A stretch of 64,000 nt of DNA from Escherichia phage vB_EcoM_SP1: the sequence record MT682709.1; one strand, given 5' to 3'. The notes below the pieces were generated by a model. The model worked only from the letters and a program-made list of their open reading frames with translations, was not told where the DNA came from and made no database searches. The position numbers and the translations under genes were made by a program. Shown here piece after piece: positions 51,109 through 60,702 of this stretch. Each line of letters starts with the position of its first letter. Within the stretch, counting starts at the first letter, position 1.

Positions 51109-52118
51109 TGAAAACAATAATGAAAAGCTATTTTGGTAGTCATCTTTATGGAACTTCTACTCCAGAATCTGATGTAGATTTTAAAGAAATCTTTGTTCCT
51201 CCTGCTCGTGATATTCTTATCGGAAATGTTAAAGAGCATATGAGTAAAAACACTAACAACACATCATCTAAAAACACCAAAGATGATATTGACCATGAAC
51301 TATACAGTCTTAAATATTTCTTTAAATTAGCAGCAGATGGTGAAACTGTAGCATTGGATATGCTCCACACTCCACCTGAACTGGTAGTTAAATCTGATTT
51401 GCCTGATGTATGGAAGTTTATTCAAGACAATCGTTCACGGTTTTATACAACTAACATGAAATCCTATTTAGGATATGTTCGCAAGCAAGCTTCTAAATAT
51501 GGTGTTAAGGGTTCTCGTTTGGCCGCATTGCGTGATGTATTGAAAGCAGTTAATCAAATCCCTGATCAGTGGGTTGATTACCAAGAAGACGGTTCCATTA
51601 AGCAGCGTCGAACTAAAGTAGAAGATATTAAGCATCGTCTTCCAGAAAACGAGTTCTGTGAATGGGTATTCCATAATCATGAGAAAACAGGCCCGCAAAC
51701 GTTCTATACTGTGTTGGGTCGTAAATATCAGACAACACTTTCTCTTATTGAGCTTAAGCAGTCTTTGAATAAACTTGATGCTGAATACGGCGAACGTGCT
51801 CGTAAGGCTGAAGCGAATGAGGGTATTGACTGGAAAGCACTGAGCCATGCTTGTCGTGGTGGACTCCAACTATTGGAAATTTACAAAACTGGTGACTTGG
51901 TTTATCCACTCCAAGATGCTCCATTTATTCTCGATGTGAAGTTGGGTAAACATCCATTTAAAACGATCCAAGAGTTTTTGGAAGATGTGGTCGATCAAGT
52001 AGAAGCAGCATCCATTGAAGCTTCTAAGAACGGTATGCAGCAAAAAGTAGACATGGGTTTCTGGGATGACTTCCTTGAGAGGGTTTATCTTGAAAACCAC
52101 CGAAGTTATTATAAATAA
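51105..52118 (+). CDS. nucleotidyltransferase-fold protein (Pol-beta superfamily)
   Basis: N-terminal GSHLYGTSTPESDVDF matches the GS...[DE]h[DE]h NTase motif; 337 aa with helical C-terminal half. Confidence 0.55.
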   Translation: MMKTIMKSYFGSHLYGTSTPESDVDFKEIFVPPARDILIGNVKEHMSKNTNNTSSKNTKDDIDHELYSLKYFFKLAADGETVALDMLHTPPELVVKSDLPDVWKFIQDNRSRFYTTNMKSYLGYVRKQASKYGVKGSRLAALRDVLKAVNQIPDQWVDYQEDGSIKQRRTKVEDIKHRLPENEFCEWVFHNHEKTGPQTFYTVLGRKYQTTLSLIELKQSLNKLDAEYGERARKAEANEGIDWKALSHACRGGLQLLEIYKTGDLVYPLQDAPFILDVKLGKHPFKTIQEFLEDVVDQVEAASIEASKNGMQQKVDMGFWDDFLERVYLENHRSYYK

Positions 52119-52120
52119 AA

Positions 52121-52147
52121 AGGGAGCCTTCGGGCTCCCTTTTTATT
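52121..52147 (+). terminator. intrinsic terminator
   Basis: AGGGAGCC-ttcg-GGCTCCCT followed by TTTTATTT. Confidence 0.8.
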
Positions 52148-52168
52148 TCAAAATTTTTTCACAAAACG

Positions 52169-52198
52169 GTTTACAAGCATAAAGCTTTATGGTACTAT
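52169..52198 (+). promoter_or_regulatory. early promoter (GTTTAC ... TACTAT)
   Basis: 18-bp spacing; leader near-identical to the 35972 and 53608 promoters. Confidence 0.6.
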
Positions 52199-53290: not shown

Positions 53291-53605
53291 ATGGAGGTAG
53301 TGATGTTATACTCAAAGGCTCGTGAAATTTACGAAACTAAAATTAAAGAAGCAGTATTTCAATTCGCAACGACAATGCGATGGACAAATGACTGGGAGTA
53401 TTCAAAAAATCATAAGAAGCCCATGGTGACAAGAAAGGCTCATATGTTAGTGTTAATAGACCGTGAGCAGATTAAAGCCCGAGAAGCTCTCCAGAATCAT
53501 AAAAAGGCTGCCTTTGAATGGTTTATGGATAACACTGCTCCTGAGACTAAGAAAGCGGTAAGCGCATGGTTCAGTGGAAAAAATTGTGAAAGAAGTTTCT
53601 TTTAG
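53291..53605 (+). CDS. hypothetical protein
   Basis: 104 aa. Confidence 0.5.
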   Translation: MEVVMLYSKAREIYETKIKEAVFQFATTMRWTNDWEYSKNHKKPMVTRKAHMLVLIDREQIKAREALQNHKKAAFEWFMDNTAPETKKAVSAWFSGKNCERSFF

Positions 53606-53607
53606 TG

Positions 53608-53637
53608 GTTTACAAGACTGTTCCTCTGTGGTACTAT
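53608..53637 (+). promoter_or_regulatory. early promoter (GTTTAC ... TACTAT)
   Basis: 18-bp spacing. Confidence 0.6.
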
Positions 53638-53665
53638 ACAACTATCAACTACGGAGGAACAGAAA

Positions 53666-54193
53666 ATGAACGCTAAAGATATTTTCAACCTGGTAAATTA
53701 CAACGATGGTAAATTTAAATCTGAAGCACAAAGTAAGTTCTTTAACGACATCTCAATCGGAGGTGAAATCACTGTTGATGGAGGACAAATTTACAAATCC
53801 CGTTGGAATTGGATCGTTATTATCGATGAGATTGGTATTGTAGAAATTTACAAGAATACGAATAAAAATCGTACATTACACTGGTCTCGTGATACTAACG
53901 AACAGTACAAAAAGGATAAAGCATCTAAAATGTCTCGTGTAACTCAAGAAGATATTGAGTTCATCAAGAAAGATATTTTAATGTATGATAACTTAATTGC
54001 TGAAGAGCAAGCTGTTATTGATAAATTTGATGAGATTAAAGCTTCTCGTGAAATTCCTGATTTTATGAAAGAATCAGTAAATGAACGATACTCTCTCATT
54101 TCAGAGCGTATTGAAACTTACAAAAAGCAAAGAGCTGAACGCCAAAATACTCTTCGGAAGTTTGAAGAACGGTTAAAGACGGTACTCGCATAA
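53666..54193 (+). CDS. hypothetical protein
   Basis: 175 aa, charged C-terminal helix. Confidence 0.55.
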   Translation: MNAKDIFNLVNYNDGKFKSEAQSKFFNDISIGGEITVDGGQIYKSRWNWIVIIDEIGIVEIYKNTNKNRTLHWSRDTNEQYKKDKASKMSRVTQEDIEFIKKDILMYDNLIAEEQAVIDKFDEIKASREIPDFMKESVNERYSLISERIETYKKQRAERQNTLRKFEERLKTVLA

Positions 54194-54248
54194 CCGCTTT
54201 ATACCAAGGATGGTATAATGGTTCTAAGCCCTTTTAATTGAGATTATT

Positions 54249-54656
54249 ATGAAACAGTTGATAATTAAAAGATTGAATTTATTGATATGTTGTTTATGTG
54301 TAGTAGTTGCATATGGTTATTACGCAATTAATGATTATATGCACTATAAAGATTATGATGTTACTGTAGTTAATACTATTACAGGAACACAAGGAAAGGG
54401 GTCTAGTTTATCGTTTATTGCCGTATATGAACTCAAAGACGGTTATAGATTTAGTGAATATATTTCCCCAGAGATGTATTCTTCAATAGAAAAAGGTGAT
54501 AATATTACTGTAAGTTTACGTCCTTTCGACGTAAAACAGACACTGTTTGATAATATTGTTTGGTTCTTTGGGATGGTATTAGTTCAATCCGTGTGTGGTG
54601 CTTATATAGTCTGTTCAATCATATTCTGTGTATTTAGTAAAATTGAAATTGAGTGA
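54249..54656 (+). CDS. membrane protein
   Basis: 135 aa, N- and C-terminal TM segments. Confidence 0.5.
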   Translation: MKQLIIKRLNLLICCLCVVVAYGYYAINDYMHYKDYDVTVVNTITGTQGKGSSLSFIAVYELKDGYRFSEYISPEMYSSIEKGDNITVSLRPFDVKQTLFDNIVWFFGMVLVQSVCGAYIVCSIIFCVFSKIEIE

Positions 54657-54663
54657 GGAAAAT

Positions 54664-55551
54664 ATGTCAGTAGTAATTAATAATGTCAATACAGTAATTA
54701 AATCTTTAGTTAATAAAAAATTGAATGAATGGACTGTACTTCGTCGTGGAGAGCCAGATAAATTTTTTCATAGATTTAACCTAACTCTGAATTTGAATGT
54801 TATTGACAAAGATGTTCATGCTGAAATTTTAGATAAATTTAAAGTTGATATTGGATTTGGATTAGAAAAACATCTACAGCGAACACACGAGTCTGGAATG
54901 GATTTATCTAATCGCATTATGAAAGCCCTTAATAAAATTGGAGCGCTGTCTCGTATTAATGCGAGTGAAATCCTTCGTAATTATAATAAAGGATATGACC
55001 TTTATGGTCGACTAATGCCGAAATTATCGTTTGACCAAATGATTGCGGATTTGTGGGAAAATCAACGACGATTATTAGCATTGGGCGCTCGATTAGCTAA
55101 AGGTCTAGATAAACAAATGATTTTTAAGACCAATAATACAGAAGACCTTAAATGCTTTAAATTTAGTATGCGTGGAGATGATTATTACATCAGAGCTCAC
55201 TCTACAGATTATGTTAATATGGGGCATCATCTCTGTTTAGCTTTTGAAGTTTTAAAAGAAGCTGGAACATTAGAATATTCATCTGGTGCAAAATGCCCGA
55301 TTGGTTCAAATTGTATTTTGATTTATCGCCCGGATGAATCCAGTTCAACTAAATTGCCTACAAAACCTGTACCAGTTCGTAGTAACGAAAAACATTCTGA
55401 ACAAATTGATTATTTTAATAAGCAAATTGAAGAGCTGAATATTTCTATTCAACAATACGACGATGAAATTTTCAGACTATCTGGATTGAGTAGTAAAGCT
55501 AAATCTGAGCGTGAAAAATTAATTAAAATTGTTGATTTACTTAAATCTTAA
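54664..55551 (+). CDS. hypothetical protein with C-terminal coiled coil (tandem set 1 of 4)
   Basis: 295 aa from ATG after GAGGAA; the track's GTG start discarded. Confidence 0.55.
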   Translation: MSVVINNVNTVIKSLVNKKLNEWTVLRRGEPDKFFHRFNLTLNLNVIDKDVHAEILDKFKVDIGFGLEKHLQRTHESGMDLSNRIMKALNKIGALSRINASEILRNYNKGYDLYGRLMPKLSFDQMIADLWENQRRLLALGARLAKGLDKQMIFKTNNTEDLKCFKFSMRGDDYYIRAHSTDYVNMGHHLCLAFEVLKEAGTLEYSSGAKCPIGSNCILIYRPDESSSTKLPTKPVPVRSNEKHSEQIDYFNKQIEELNISIQQYDDEIFRLSGLSSKAKSEREKLIKIVDLLKS

Positions 55552-55559
55552 GGAACACC

Positions 55560-56588
55560 ATGAAAACTCGTTCTCAAATTGAAGATATGGTTCGTAATGC
55601 CAGCTATACCCGTGATGTTATGACATTTTTGTGTGAAAATAATTTAGACCCTGATAAAGTTAATCGTGTTATTCATCACTTTAAGTATACGAATAGCAGT
55701 GAATGGGTGCGTAATTTTAGCGAAGCAGGGTATATTACGCAAATGACGGCTCGTGAGCAGCTCACCGATTTCTGTAAAACTATTGATTATAAAAATCCTC
55801 TATTTGTTCAAGGCGTTGGTCAAAGTAAGGTCGATTTATCATCTGGATTTTTTAATCCAAATCATTATCGTATTGAATGGAGATTTATTGCTCTGTTCCG
55901 TAGACAATTAAAGCAAATTTTATCAACTGCGAGTCGATTAAAAGGTTCTGATATTAACTTAAAGAATCTGAAATTTGATGGTTATACTCTTCAGATGGAA
56001 GTAAGACCATTAAAAGAAAATAATAGAACTGCACGAATTAGCTTTAAACCTAATACAAAAAATTCTCTTTCAATTTGCGAATGCCTTAAATCACAGTTAA
56101 CAGAAGCATTTAAGTATATGGATGTTGTTGCTGCTGTTCAATCTAAGATTTTACCTCGTTTTGAACGATTTAAGTTAGATACAACATCATATGAACTTGA
56201 TATGATCGTTTCATTTAAATACGATTTTTTGAGAAAGGACGAAGTCCCGCAAGAGAAAAAGCAGGAAGCGCAAGATAACTTAAATTTAAATTTATCCAAT
56301 TACTCATCAAACGATCCTAAATTTTGGATGTATAGCTCAAGCAATATAGATGCATGTAAACTTAATAAAGTGAGTTTTCTTCCTACTGAAAATTCAAATT
56401 TTAAACCTGTAGAAAAATGGCACGCTGACGCGATTGAGAAGTCTCTTAAGGCAGTAGATGATGAACTCGTTAAAGCGACCAATGAAGTGCTAGAAGCTGA
56501 AAAGGCGTTAGAACAAGCTCAGTCAAGGGTTCAAAATCTGACAAAGCAACGTTCTAAACTGAACAATGCACTAAATGCACTGAACTAG
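55560..56588 (+). CDS. hypothetical protein with C-terminal coiled coil (tandem set 2 of 4)
   Basis: 342 aa. Confidence 0.55.
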   Translation: MKTRSQIEDMVRNASYTRDVMTFLCENNLDPDKVNRVIHHFKYTNSSEWVRNFSEAGYITQMTAREQLTDFCKTIDYKNPLFVQGVGQSKVDLSSGFFNPNHYRIEWRFIALFRRQLKQILSTASRLKGSDINLKNLKFDGYTLQMEVRPLKENNRTARISFKPNTKNSLSICECLKSQLTEAFKYMDVVAAVQSKILPRFERFKLDTTSYELDMIVSFKYDFLRKDEVPQEKKQEAQDNLNLNLSNYSSNDPKFWMYSSSNIDACKLNKVSFLPTENSNFKPVEKWHADAIEKSLKAVDDELVKATNEVLEAEKALEQAQSRVQNLTKQRSKLNNALNALN

Positions 56589-56617
56589 TTTACTTCACCA
56601 CAAGGATGTGGTATAAT
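56588..56617 (+). promoter_or_regulatory. early promoter (GTTTAC ... TGgTATAAT)
   Basis: 18-bp spacing; the -10 overlaps the track's ATG at 56616, supporting the downstream start 56646. Confidence 0.6.
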
Positions 56618-56645
56618 GTTCTTACTTTCTACTGAGGAGATTATT

Positions 56646-57647
56646 ATGACTCGTAACGAATATATCAAATCATTCAATAGAGTTATTGATGATAAAGCTA
56701 TACCGATGTTTGGCCAAAATAGCGTTCTTTCTATTATCAATCAGTGGCTCAATAGTGTTGATGCAAGTATTGTTTCTTCTGCTAAATTTATTCATGAAAT
56801 TCGTAAAATTTCTAGCCGTGTAGATAAAGATGTTATCAAGAAAACCTTTAAAGAGTCTCGTCTTCTTTCATATTTGGTTAATCGGGATATTCTTGGTAAT
56901 TTTGGGAAAGAAATTAAACGAACCAAAGATGTAGTAGGATATAATTGGTTCGGTGATGTTAATTCTTATCATCTTAATAATAAAGAAGACCCTGAGAATA
57001 TTTTTACTCGTCGTTGGATTAGTAATTTCAGACTTTTCAAAGGACAGATTCTAAAATCAGCTTCTAAATTATGTTATGGCGATTATCGTCAAATTCATCC
57101 TTTGGCTTCTGATATGATTATCATAAAAGAATATGAACTTGATAAAAATAAAGTATCTATTTTTGTGAATTATGGATTTTTTACACCAGAAGCTAACCAA
57201 AAGAACATTAATAAATTTTTCTCAATTGCTAGCACTATAACTCGTCAATTAGAGACCGCATTACTTTGTATGGAAACAGTAGAAAATATTCATACTTATC
57301 CTTTTAAGAATATATGCGGTTGGGAAGGATATAAAATTGTAATTAGTCTTCGTGAAGTAAAGTGCGCGTACTCACCTACTAATAAAGAAATTTATCAACA
57401 AAAATGTGAGGAAATTGTGAATACCCCTAAAGAAGAAACTACCCTTGAGGAACTAATGGATAATCTTGACGATTCGCCTGAACCGGTAGAAATTCGTCCA
57501 GAAGTTATTGCACTAGAAAAAGCTTATAAAGAAGTTCTAGAAATTTCTAATAAAGCACAGAAAGAATATGAGCAGGCTAAAAGGATTTGGGAAGAATCTG
57601 TTAATCGCCTAGATCGTCTTGAACAAGCTTTACAGTTAATTAAGTAA
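56646..57647 (+). CDS. hypothetical protein with C-terminal coiled coil (tandem set 3 of 4)
   Basis: 333 aa from MTRNEY after GAGGAG. Confidence 0.55.
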   Translation: MTRNEYIKSFNRVIDDKAIPMFGQNSVLSIINQWLNSVDASIVSSAKFIHEIRKISSRVDKDVIKKTFKESRLLSYLVNRDILGNFGKEIKRTKDVVGYNWFGDVNSYHLNNKEDPENIFTRRWISNFRLFKGQILKSASKLCYGDYRQIHPLASDMIIIKEYELDKNKVSIFVNYGFFTPEANQKNINKFFSIASTITRQLETALLCMETVENIHTYPFKNICGWEGYKIVISLREVKCAYSPTNKEIYQQKCEEIVNTPKEETTLEELMDNLDDSPEPVEIRPEVIALEKAYKEVLEISNKAQKEYEQAKRIWEESVNRLDRLEQALQLIK

Positions 57648-57699
57648 TTTAAAGCCAAGGATGGCTCGGAGTATAAATCATTAACCAAGTGAGAAGAAC

Positions 57700-58629
57700 A
57701 TGAAAACTCGTAAACATTATATTGATTATTTTGATAGTCTTATTACTAAACACCGTAATTATCATATCGGGCACAGAGCAGTAATCAATAATATTCTTCG
57801 TGATTTCCTTCAATATGTTGGCCAGGAAAATCATATCTGTAAAGATACTCAAAACGCTTATTCTCATTCGTTAGGCAATTTGCTTGAATGGTTTAAACGT
57901 TCTCGTATGTTATCTTCTACTATAGCTCATGAGAACATTAAAAACTTTATGAAGCCGAGCTTCATTAAATCTGAGACATCTATAACCGATTTGGTTGAAT
58001 TTACTATTGTTAACGATGTTAAAAAGACCCATTTGGCTGATTGGTTATCTACCATTCCCGAAACTAAATTTGCTGATAAATTTGCTTGTCAATTCAATGA
58101 CCAAGTGAATATGCTTTTTAAGCATGCTCGCAAACTGTTTACCGCTGGCGATGACCGTACAAATACAGTTCATGTTAAGGATTGGGTTATTGCTGATGAA
58201 GTAACACACAAGCCAGGTGGTTCATCAGTATTAATTAATATCCAGGTTCCTTATTATTACTCACGTAATCTCGGCACCATGACAGCTAAAGAAATTAATA
58301 AGCACAACAAAACTATTCGTTCGTTGTCTTATAAACTTCGCATGATGTTAAAAATTATGGACGTAGTAGAAATGTATGATGAAACCGAAGATAATGGTTC
58401 AATGTTATACAGTTCACGCATTCTAATTAAACTGAAGAACCCTAATACGTATAAGCCAGTTGTAAAAGAACCTAAAGTAGAAAAGGTTGATAACTTGAGC
58501 GAAGAACGCGAATATCTCAAATCTCGACTGGTTGAAGTTGAAGCCCAAATTGCAGAACACACCAAATTGTTAAAAGCTCTTAATGCAAAAGCAAATGGTT
58601 TACGTAATGCTATTGAGGTACTGAAATGA
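57700..58629 (+). CDS. hypothetical protein with C-terminal coiled coil (tandem set 4 of 4)
   Basis: 309 aa. Confidence 0.55.
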   Translation: MKTRKHYIDYFDSLITKHRNYHIGHRAVINNILRDFLQYVGQENHICKDTQNAYSHSLGNLLEWFKRSRMLSSTIAHENIKNFMKPSFIKSETSITDLVEFTIVNDVKKTHLADWLSTIPETKFADKFACQFNDQVNMLFKHARKLFTAGDDRTNTVHVKDWVIADEVTHKPGGSSVLINIQVPYYYSRNLGTMTAKEINKHNKTIRSLSYKLRMMLKIMDVVEMYDETEDNGSMLYSSRILIKLKNPNTYKPVVKEPKVEKVDNLSEEREYLKSRLVEVEAQIAEHTKLLKALNAKANGLRNAIEVLK

Positions 58630-58922
58630 AAAAGCGTTTATTAGAAGATATTGCCGAAGCTTCAGATTTTCCTGAATGGACTCCATGCGTTGGGTTTGAT
58701 AAAGGACTGCTAGTTACTGACGATTTAGATTTTAAACCTCCAGCATGGGATGCCATTATGGCTATGGTTGAACGTCGTGAAAGGGCTTCTAAAAACGTTC
58801 CTAATTGCCCTGAATGTGGAACTGAACAGGTGCAATTGGTCCATTGGCAGACTAGTAATCTTCGTTATAAATGTCGCCATTGCAAACACCGATTTGACCG
58901 AGAAGAAAATGACCAAGCGTAA
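58626..58922 (+). CDS. zinc-ribbon protein
   Basis: 98 aa; CPECG...CRHCKH four-Cys ribbon. Confidence 0.5.
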
Positions 58923-59151
58923 AGAATATATGGAGGCTGCTGAAAAGGCAGTCCGTGAATTAGCAATAGCTTATTATAATGAACATGGTAAATTTCCTGA
59001 TAGATACAGCGTACTTAAATCTGCTTTAACTCGTTCATATAAAAATATGCTATCAGAAGTAAGTGATATTATATACAAACATAAAGAACAAACGGGCCAA
59101 AGTCTTGATTACGACGAGACTTTTAAACAAGTACTAGGAATTAAGGAATAA
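58909..59151 (+). CDS. hypothetical protein
   Basis: 80 aa from internal ATG ([14 protein letters not shown]); the track ORF 58750 extends upstream across the zinc-ribbon gene. Confidence 0.45.
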
Positions 59152-59152
59152 T

Positions 59153-59416
59153 ATGTTTAAAGTATATGGTTATGATAGCAACATTCATAAATGTGTGTAT
59201 TGCGATAATGCAAAACGTCTTTTGACCGTGAAGAAACAGCCGTTTGAATTTATCAACATTATGCCGGAAAAAGGTGTTTTTGATGATGAGAAAATCGCTG
59301 AGCTTCTGACTAAACTAGGTCGTGATACTCAAATCGGCTTGACAATGCCCCAGGTATTTGCTCCTGATGGAAGTCATATTGGTGGATTTGACCAACTGCG
59401 AGAATACTTTAAATGA
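59153..59416 (+). CDS. nrdC: thioredoxin/glutaredoxin NrdC
   Basis: 87 aa; CVYC active site; matches recalled T4 NrdC. Confidence 0.92.
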   Translation: MFKVYGYDSNIHKCVYCDNAKRLLTVKKQPFEFINIMPEKGVFDDEKIAELLTKLGRDTQIGLTMPQVFAPDGSHIGGFDQLREYFK

Positions 59417-59628
59417 TGCTCGAAGGAACTGATTATATCCATGACTACCGCGGAAGCGCGGTATATGTAGGTGATGAAGTTGCAGTTTATTATGGGTATG
59501 GAACTTTGATGACAGCCAAGGTTATTCAAATTAAAAATAATCGTGCTAAACTCGAAGTTTATTATTCTAATGGTGAAAAGTCTATTTCTAAGTGGAAATA
59601 CGGCGATTGTATGGTTAAATTGGGGTAA
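59413..59628 (+). CDS. hypothetical small protein
   Basis: 71 aa, ATGA-coupled to nrdC. Confidence 0.5.
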   Translation: MMLEGTDYIHDYRGSAVYVGDEVAVYYGYGTLMTAKVIQIKNNRAKLEVYYSNGEKSISKWKYGDCMVKLG

Positions 59629-59630
59629 AT

Positions 59631-59801
59631 ATGATTTACGATATTAATGTATCACGAGCTCCGTCAATGGTTACTATTCCAGCCGAAGAACTAGATCGTC
59701 TTCAGAAAATTGAAGAACTTCTTTGGGAAATTGAATGTGCCCTGCCATCAGGACTAGAATCCTGGATTGATGATGAAGAACTTAATAAATTGCGAAATTA
59801 A
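59631..59801 (+). CDS. hypothetical small protein
   Basis: 56 aa ORF below the track cutoff. Confidence 0.35.
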   Translation: MIYDINVSRAPSMVTIPAEELDRLQKIEELLWEIECALPSGLESWIDDEELNKLRN

Positions 59802-59811
59802 TTGGTGAAAA

Positions 59812-60132
59812 ATGACTATTGAAAATAAATTAGATGTTGATGCAGTTCTGAGCGAAATCATTGAAGACCATGATGCATTTTCGGAAAACTATGATTTCGA
59901 TTTTTCCGATTATCTTAAACCTGTCGAAATAGAAGACTGGGTGCAAGATGGTAAATGTCAATATCGTCAGTGTGTTTACTTTAGTCCAAAACATAATGTA
60001 CATGTGGCTGTAAATGAATCTCGCTCAGGTTCTTACCATTCTGACTGGTATTATGCAGTTCCTACCGTTGAACTGGTTGAGCTTCGAGAACGTGTAGTAA
60101 CTCAGACAGTACGAGAATGGATTACGCTATAA
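59812..60132 (+). CDS. hypothetical acidic protein
   Basis: 106 aa. Confidence 0.5.
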   Translation: MTIENKLDVDAVLSEIIEDHDAFSENYDFDFSDYLKPVEIEDWVQDGKCQYRQCVYFSPKHNVHVAVNESRSGSYHSDWYYAVPTVELVELRERVVTQTVREWITL

Positions 60133-60237: not shown

Positions 60238-60702
60238 TTGATATGGAGATGGGACATGATTACAGTAGATAAGTGGTTTAGAATTAATCGTGCTGATACA
60301 GGGCTGTGTAATTACTGGCCGGAACTTAGTGCAGGTGCTGTCTTTAAAGTTCGTGAACTTGCAAAAGAATGTGAAGATGATATAGAGCCTGACACTGGAA
60401 TTATTGAAATTGAACTTTCTGATGGAAAGATTATTAACATCTACGATAAGCCAATTACGTATTGGTGCTTATGGAATACTGAATCAGTAGAAAATGGTGA
60501 AATTGAAGAAGTTGTAGAGAGAACTAATCAAGTTGTTCAGAAGCCCAAAGCCGATTTTCAAGGTGAACGTATTTCATACGCATTAGCTAAATTAGCTGCG
60601 CAAGAAAATAACGATGGCTATGAAGGAAATTTGATGCAAGCTGCGGCAGAATATATTGAATGGCTTGAAACTCAAAATTCTTTTTCTGACAGGACATTTT
60701 AA
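60238..60702 (+). CDS. hypothetical protein in the position of T4 pin (protease inhibitor)
   Basis: 154 aa; positional inference only. Confidence 0.35.
   Translation: MIWRWDMITVDKWFRINRADTGLCNYWPELSAGAVFKVRELAKECEDDIEPDTGIIEIELSDGKIINIYDKPITYWCLWNTESVENGEIEEVVERTNQVVQKPKADFQGERISYALAKLAAQENNDGYEGNLMQAAAEYIEWLETQNSFSDRTF

Follow-up and report, generated by a model that had tools for sequence, protein, structure and literature searches.

In the genome of Escherichia phage vB_EcoM_SP1 (MT682709.1), four consecutive open reading frames of similar length and build (ORFs A to D, positions 54664-58629, + strand) lie within a stretch of 64,000 nucleotides, here referred to as the window, and raise the question whether they constitute a gene family and what such a family might do for the phage. 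A first-pass annotation of the window, made from the sequence alone, had likened them to a diversifying tandem family with coiled-coil ends. From the comparisons described below, the evidence leans, if only slightly, towards the four being old, fast-evolving paralogs of a superfamily of the nrdC-nrdC.11 early region in Tevenvirinae that code for dispensable early anti-defence proteins.

As to the identity of the genes, the phage is a Tequatrovirus, the window is one of its early-gene regions, given here in the sense in which early transcription runs, and a megablast search with positions 53600-59450 matched 745 phage records, nearly all of them from Tequatrovirus and its relatives. Comparison with the annotated T4 genome shows by sequence and position that ORFs A to D are the orthologs of T4 nrdC.6, nrdC.5, nrdC.4 and nrdC.3, respectively, so that the nrdC.x genes, which had been proposed merely as a comparison, turned out to be the four ORFs themselves. 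ORF A (54664-55551, +, 295 amino acids) is 95% identical to its T4 counterpart over the aligned part, ORF B (55560-56588, +, 342 amino acids) 95%, ORF C (56646-57647, +, 333 amino acids) 97%, and ORF D (57700-58629, +, 309 amino acids), which represents a non-T4 allele class, 61%. Their translations agree exactly in sequence and length with GenBank SP1_0183, SP1_0184, SP1_0185 and SP1_0186 of vB_EcoM_SP1. The coordinates and start codons given in the first-pass annotation are right, as Shine-Dalgarno sequences precede them and the protein lengths match the deposited ones; longer alternative starts exist at GTG 54628 for ORF A and at ATG 56616 for ORF C. The stop codon of ORF D overlaps the start of nrdC.2.

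The genes themselves are thus already known and filed in families. ORF B matches the DUF7235 model (PF23882) over its full length (394.9 bits, gathering score 30 bits, E = 3.7e-118, residues 1-342 against positions 1-307 of 307 of the hidden Markov model), belongs to phrog_2351, and differs in nothing of substance from T4 NrdC.5, which lies likewise between nrdC.6 and nrdC.4 and carries the same DUF7235. This model has no match in ORFs A, C and D. ORFs C and D both match the phrog_1435 profile over their full length (E = 3.2e-168, residues 1-333, and E = 5e-115, residues 2-309, respectively), as do T4 NrdC.3 and the D-like protein of phage JK45, and ORF A belongs to phrog_2257 and is assigned to PF26899 in precomputed tables. 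The label "thioredoxin", which many GenBank and UniRef records attach to homologs of nrdC.2-nrdC.11, fails for ORFs A to D: neither Pfam nor NCBIfam yields a thioredoxin or glutaredoxin match for any of them, and the AlphaFold2 (AF2) models of A and B are not thioredoxin folds. It appears that the locus name nrdC.x gave rise to the label. Sequence searches of the PDB matched no solved structure to any of the four, NCBIfam returned for them only sub-threshold coiled-coil noise, Rfam contains no RNA family matching the region, and no meaningful DNA repeats were found between the four genes. In one 90%-identity database cluster, the window's NrdC.4 (333 amino acids) is filed under a representative (P0013, 342 amino acids) that is a NrdC.5 homolog and shares 94% identity with ORF B; this seems to be an artefact of the clustering and not biology.

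With respect to the build of the proteins, the coiled-coil ends proposed in the first-pass annotation are found on all four. Within the last 42 residues, 83-92% of the heptad positions a and d are hydrophobic as opposed to 17-30% of the other positions, a pattern unlikely to arise by shuffling (p = 0.003 for A, p < 0.0005 for B, p = 0.0035 for C and p = 0.0185 for D), in contrast to the control proteins nrdC.10 and nrdC.11 (p = 0.8-1.0). The a/d periodicity extends over at least four heptads and, according to the AF2 models, which cover A and B, coincides with a continuous terminal helix of 50 residues in A (55396-55545, +, residues 245-294, ending in KLIKIVDLLKS) and of 58 residues in B (56409-56582, +, residues 284-341, ending in KLNNALNALN), the latter having a regular 3-4 hydrophobic spacing and a predicted local distance difference test score (pLDDT) of 83-93. 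The tails of C (57498-57644, +, the last 49 residues, ending in RLEQALQLIK) and D (58501-58626, +, the last 42 residues) are known from the heptad test and from the end motif L-x-x-[AIS]-[LIV]-x-[LVAT]-[LI]-[KN], which closes all four proteins as well as gp91 of Citrobacter phage Merlin and gp94 of Yersinia phage fHe-Yen9-01. This motif, which was defined after the sequences had been seen, is present in 42 of the 364 ORFs of the local set, and all 42 are family members.

Upstream of the tail, the model of A, which was computed from a family alignment (mean pLDDT 78), is folded up to residue 221 and continues through a low-confidence linker (222-244) into the terminal helix (245-294), and the model of B (mean pLDDT 68, core 80-92) comprises a core from residue 56 to 226 and a disordered segment (227-279) before the terminal helix. 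Both models present the same order of elements, namely a helix pair, a beta-hairpin, a helix, a second beta-hairpin, a disordered linker and the long helix. The N-terminal parts of A to D are indeed basic, as had been noted, with isoelectric points of 9.2-9.5, but they are not rich in aromatic residues, the combined proportion of F, W and Y being 9-12% versus 10.6% for the + strand ORFs of the window. Taken over the four proteins, the common architecture would therefore be a variable basic N-terminus, an alpha/beta core roughly 150 residues long, a disordered linker of 25-55 residues and an amphipathic C-terminal helix of 45-58 residues that closes with L-x-x-A-[LIV]-x-x-L-K.

Whether this common build reflects common descent is less easily decided at the level of sequence. 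The weak primary similarity between the ORFs that had been seen by eye is borne out by an all-against-all BLASTP comparison, in which only C and D are significantly similar (27% over 160 amino acids, E = 2e-5). In the all-against-all profile alignment the pair C-D reaches a probability of 99% in hhalign, and still 98% with the coiled coil removed, B-D reaches 83% globally, B-C 28-43% over 173 co-linear core columns and A-B 9-30% (P = 3e-4 to 4e-3); A-C and A-D yielded nothing in direct hhalign, and an iterative hmmsearch in the local ORF set added no significant link beyond C-D. The proposed tandem family is consequently clear for C and D and probable for B, but direct profiles do not carry it to A. 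In addition, B, C and D start in a similar way (MKTR in B and D, MTRN in C) and share the helix motif [IL]L..A[SA][RK]L..G, of which each of the four proteins has a version in the corresponding position: RLLALGARLAKG in A (also read as LLALGARLAKG), ILSTASRLKG in B, ILKSASKLCYG in C and LFKHARKLFTAG in D.

Further links are provided by structural neighbours and by bridging sequences from other phages. In Foldseek searches of BFVD, the significant matches of the A and B models are uncharacterised proteins of 300-375 amino acids from T4-like phages, and four neighbours are common to both models (Pectobacterium phage PM2 A0A0A0PZG4, Yersinia phage fHe-Yen9-01 A0A1V0DXL6, gp111, Citrobacter phage Merlin A0A0K1LMI4, gp91, and Serratia phage PS2 A0A023W506). 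A 175-amino-acid protein of Klebsiella phage KPV15 also resembles the B model in structure, though weakly, and was one of the reasons for considering nrdC.8 as a further member (see below). At the sequence level, gp082 of phage CC31, which is encoded just upstream of nrdC.2 and thus in the nrdC.3/nrdC.4 position, matches the A family with 87-90% over its full length in hhalign and with 11% without the coil (P = 0.003, 154 columns); gp082 and the family of a 324-amino-acid protein of phage UTI-K4 find each other in reciprocal PHROG matches (9e-6 and 6e-5), and the UTI-K4 protein in turn reaches 66% to C in a core-only comparison and phrog_1435 at 3e-3. Likewise, fHe-Yen9-01 gp94 matches both D (BLASTP, 4e-6) and A (hhalign, P = 4e-4) in the same core region. 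The resulting chains from A via CC31 gp082 and UTI-K4 to C/D and from A via gp94 to D consist of links with P or E values of 2e-7 to 3e-3, all of which are co-linear in the core. On the basis of these comparisons, nrdC.4 and nrdC.3 can be taken as certain paralogs, nrdC.5 is probably related to them, and the membership of nrdC.6 in the same superfamily, as suggested by its model, the common structural neighbours, the bridging sequences and the C-terminal motif, is plausible but unproven. One old superfamily spanning all four ORFs is thus the most likely interpretation.

The four ORFs are early genes in two units, as indicated by the T4 early promoters at 53608 and 56588. The T4 early-promoter pattern GTTTAC-N15-17-TGnTAYnMT has 11 matches in the window, all on the + strand (32616, 32995, 35972, 36700, 40432, 41173, 44425, 48618, 52169, 53608 and 56588), compared to 0.05 expected by chance. 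The match at 53608-53637 (+, GTTTACA-N-TGGTACTAT), also picked up by a sigma-70 scan with an extended -10 TG, heads nrdC.8, nrdC.7, ORF A and ORF B, and the match at 56588-56617 (+, GTTTACT-N-TGGTATAAT), found by the pattern as well as by the sigma-70 scan, lies directly upstream of ORF C and heads C, D, nrdC.2, nrdC.1 and nrdC. Both sites had been listed in the first-pass annotation; the one at 53608, however, precedes nrdC.8 and nrdC.7 and not, as had been assumed, the first of the four ORFs directly.

A function has been established for one member of the array. A T4 clone without nrdC.5 failed to plate on ECOR17 and on K-12 cells endowed with dsr1 from ECOR17, and plating was restored by nrdC.5 on a plasmid, whereas loss of the gene is harmless to T4 on K-12 (Srikant et al., eLife 2022, PMC9391042). 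Dsr1 combines a SIR2 NADase with a TPR sensor, and the major capsid protein of the phage has been reported as its trigger (preprint PMC12803255). Since ORF B is 95% identical to T4 NrdC.5, an anti-Dsr1 function can be inferred for it by orthology. The remaining three proteins have in common with T4 NrdC.5 only the architecture and a probable remote relationship; they are the orthologs, by position and sequence, of T4 genes that code for hypothetical proteins. The genomic surroundings are in line with a role in anti-defence, as nrdC.1 (58909-59151, 99% identical to T4) and gp49.2 (59812-60132, 98%), published as inhibitors of Septu and OLD, respectively, are encoded just downstream and place the block in an anti-defence-rich early region; pin follows at 60238-60702. 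These two accessory proteins lie in the same early region, not more than 1.5 kb downstream of ORF D, and each inhibits one defence system, but they are small (80 and 106 amino acids), unrelated in sequence to A to D and devoid of a coiled-coil tail.

Hence, nrdC.3, nrdC.4 and nrdC.6 stand out as promising candidates for additional anti-defence genes, and the following course of events can be envisaged. The proteins would be made immediately after infection from the two T4-type early promoters, and ORF B, like its T4 ortholog, would neutralise Dsr1. By analogy with the neutralisation of DSR2 by DSAD1, NrdC.5 might bind directly to Dsr1, with either the TPR sensor or the SIR2 domain as the site of contact, and thereby block its activation; the coiled coil could serve to oligomerise the inhibitor or to dock it to a common partner, and A, C and D might put the same scaffold to use against other defence systems or other variants of Dsr1. 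DSAD1, from SPbeta-like phages, disarms a defence-associated sirtuin NADase by binding to it directly. The analogy would be one of function, as no relationship between DSAD1 and NrdC.5 was found in sequence or structure, and DSAD1 acts on another target (DSR2) in hosts of another phylum.

The evolutionary behaviour of the genes fits accessory functions of this kind. In a small sample of about ten Tequatrovirus loci, the ratio of nonsynonymous to synonymous substitution rates (dN/dS, Nei-Gojobori) was 0.12 for A, 0.21 for B, 0.19 for C and 0.28 for D, as compared to 0.01-0.11 for the flanking genes from nrdC.11 to gp49, i.e., two to six times the values of the latter, and dN was 0.02-0.18 versus at most 0.023 in the flanking genes. 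Gene-wide positive selection on A to D was rejected, all four ratios being below 1. Within the genus, A and B vary mainly in their N-terminal part and along the linker and are conserved in the core and the coil, the exception being a hairpin of B (near residues 190-210), which is variable. For nrdC.3, two allele classes exist in the genus, the type of the window and that of T4 and T2, which are about 60% identical and in which synonymous differences are near saturation over most of the gene. This near-saturation, together with the window allele being closer to that of JK45 than to that of T4, argues for the exchange of old nrdC.3 alleles by recombination. Compared to T4, the window is a mosaic, in which positions 57700-58922 form a divergent block comprising nrdC.3 (61%) and nrdC.2 (67%), flanked by nrdC.4 (97%) and nrdC.1 (99%); nrdC.2 belongs to the same replaced block as nrdC.3. 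Synonymous sites near saturation mark both the paralogs and the nrdC.3 alleles as old, so that the array is not a recently diversifying one. The term "diversifying" of the first-pass annotation therefore stands in so far as the genes evolve faster than their neighbours, vary in copy number and include two nrdC.3 classes, but not in the sense of a recent expansion or of a dN/dS exceeding 1.

Across T4-like genera, the copy number of the family ranges from one to four. Tequatrovirus has A, B, C and D; Gaprivervirus and Dhakavirus have A, a B-like gene and C but no D; JK45-type phages have A-like, B-like and D-like genes; and Moonvirus, Jiaodavirus and Karamvirus have one to two copies, with one member of about 330 amino acids. 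The five loci found in a scan of IMG/VR all belong to Tequatrovirus. Individual complete genomes display a variety of rearrangements: in Salmonella phage Manna (L005 5215-6252), residues 1-269 of A are fused in frame to residues 251-333 of C at the 9-bp microhomology GA(T/G)GAAATT; ACG-C40 (L009 4805-5216) carries a deletion from early nrdC.5 through late nrdC.3; nrdC.6 of Shigella phage Sf25 (P0058) contains an internal tandem duplication of about 83 amino acids; and in the T2 record LC348380 (L008 2026-4946), the nrdC.6 and nrdC.4 ORFs are split, which may reflect frameshifts or sequencing errors. The genes nrdC.3-nrdC.6 are thus dispensable, plastic accessory genes. Two further proteins, P0181 and P0193, were not used as examples of domain shuffling, in which foreign N-termini would sit on the nrdC.5 coil, because both may be assembly chimeras; P0181 stems from a single 803-base metagenome contig, and P0193 combines an unrelated membrane-type N-terminus with only 32 coil residues and an aberrant end.

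Several points weigh against the interpretation of the four genes as old anti-defence paralogs. ORF A is not significantly similar to B, C or D by direct profile comparison, even if AF2 secondary structure is included or the coil removed, and a search of 1.84 billion representative proteins with the nrdC.5-family profile retrieved no member of the A, C or D families, its 16 matches all being nrdC.5 relatives or fragments except for a repetitive protein of 302 amino acids (P0191, E = 5e-5). Several of the bridging links, which came from a search space that was small and targeted, have P values between 1e-3 and 1e-5, and the comparison of the cores covers the AF2 models of A and B and their element order. 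Moreover, the dN/dS values are well below 1 and the variation is gathered in disordered parts, and therefore the whole-gene signature of positive selection expected of an arms race is missing; the evidence for the action of NrdC.5 against Dsr1 is solely genetic (PMC9391042); and no function or experiment was found for nrdC.3, nrdC.4 and nrdC.6 in the literature searched. The first two of these observations would equally be expected if the four proteins shared nothing but their tails, i.e., if nrdC.4 and nrdC.3 were paralogs and nrdC.6, perhaps also nrdC.5, had an unrelated N-terminal domain to which a similar tail was added by convergence or as a recombining module. Tails do get swapped, as exemplified by the fusion in Manna, and nrdC.8 (53666-54193, 175 amino acids), which was considered as a fifth, shorter member and rejected for its lack of profile similarity to A to D and for being 98% conserved within the genus, also has a heptad-patterned helix at its C-terminal end (p = 0.002). 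What speaks against a shared tail only is the identical element order of the A and B models, their common Foldseek neighbours, the position of the helix motif in all four proteins, the core match of fHe-Yen9-01 gp94 to A as well as to D, and the full-length match of CC31 gp082 to the A family, although the latter loses most of its strength without the coil. Altogether we regard this explanation as possible but rather unlikely.

A different function is assumed if the four are basic, oligomeric early proteins that take over the host by binding nucleic acid or a host machine such as the nucleoid, RNA polymerase or the ribosome, with the effect of nrdC.5 on Dsr1 being an indirect one. The basic N-terminal parts, the early expression and the genetic nature of the Dsr1 rescue would all agree with this, yet no DNA- or RNA-binding domain was detected in Pfam, NCBIfam or PHROGs, plasmid-expressed nrdC.5 alone suffices against Dsr1, and natural isolates often have these genes deleted, fused or frameshifted, which together with a copy number that differs by genus suits accessory host-range genes better than a core take-over function; we therefore consider it improbable. 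That the proteins act in the virion or in the assembly of the tail or neck, as a core resembling tail terminators might suggest, is highly improbable given that their promoters are early and not late, that T4 can do without them and some complete phage genomes lack the genes or carry them in broken form, and that T4's own terminators, gp3 and gp15, are encoded elsewhere than in the nrdC region. In fact, sequence identity to tail terminator and completion proteins (lambda gpU fold, DUF3168, T5 p142) is only 5-10%, these proteins have neither a C-terminal coiled coil nor a linker, in contrast to the early-expressed, dispensable products of nrdC.3-nrdC.6, and the A model did not retrieve tail terminators from BFVD. 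Membership of nrdC.3-nrdC.6 in the gpU-like family, which requires the fold, the sequence family and late, virion-associated expression, was rejected. A more speculative variant of the anti-defence interpretation, to which we attach little probability, would turn this resemblance to account: T-even phages might deploy an expandable array of early scaffolded decoys, each with a core that copies a virion-protein-like (tail-terminator-like) fold, a flexible linker and a coiled-coil stalk, which are made before the structural proteins and occupy without activating them the sensors of defences that recognise conserved virion proteins (Dsr1, Avs-type and similar systems), the common end motif allowing for homo- or hetero-oligomers that block several sensors at once.

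If the four genes are indeed old paralogs with anti-defence functions, this has a number of implications. We found no description of the common architecture, of the remote links of at least eight PHROG families in one Tevenvirinae slot, of the C-terminal motif or of the tail-terminator-like core, and nrdC.3, nrdC.4 and nrdC.6 of the reference phage T4 are still annotated as "hypothetical" or, wrongly, as "thioredoxin". Their link to nrdC.5, a proven inhibitor of Dsr1, turns these three orphan genes into specific and cheaply testable anti-defence candidates, and suggests that, across Tevenvirinae, one scaffold of alpha/beta core, linker and coiled coil was duplicated and directed to new targets. 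If this holds true, it would offer a family-level principle for the discovery of anti-defence genes, namely to search by build and genomic position and not by sequence, and would help to explain host-range differences among near-identical T4-like phages in therapeutic use.

Apart from the four genes, the comparison of loci revealed further features of the region. In the window, a strong hairpin resembling an intrinsic terminator (52113-52148, 16-bp stem with 6 G-C pairs, followed by a T run) is located right after nrdC.11 and is followed by the early promoter at 52169, and the gp49.3 slot (59413-59801) holds two unrelated small ORFs (59413-59628 and 59631-59801). The gap between nrdC.11 and nrdC.10 holds variable cassettes that are absent from the window: ACG-C40 (L009 388-1407) has an ORF for a ModB-like ADP-ribosyltransferase and, like CC31 (L017 11095-11358), a DUF4031 protein, and Manna (L005 2173-2658) has an unannotated ORF of 486 nucleotides that agrees in length (162 amino acids) and place with the ModB-like ORF of ACG-C40. 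Finally, a conserved protein of 258-263 amino acids without a coiled coil and without a counterpart in the window (L015 13434-14222; L016 14138-14926; L017 14639-15415; L018 13845-14636, - strand) is 50-73% identical across Moonvirus, Jiaodavirus, Karamvirus and Tegunavirus; in three genera it adjoins the family member of about 330 amino acids on the upstream side, and in fHe-Yen9-01 it lies about 1.5 kb upstream of gp94.

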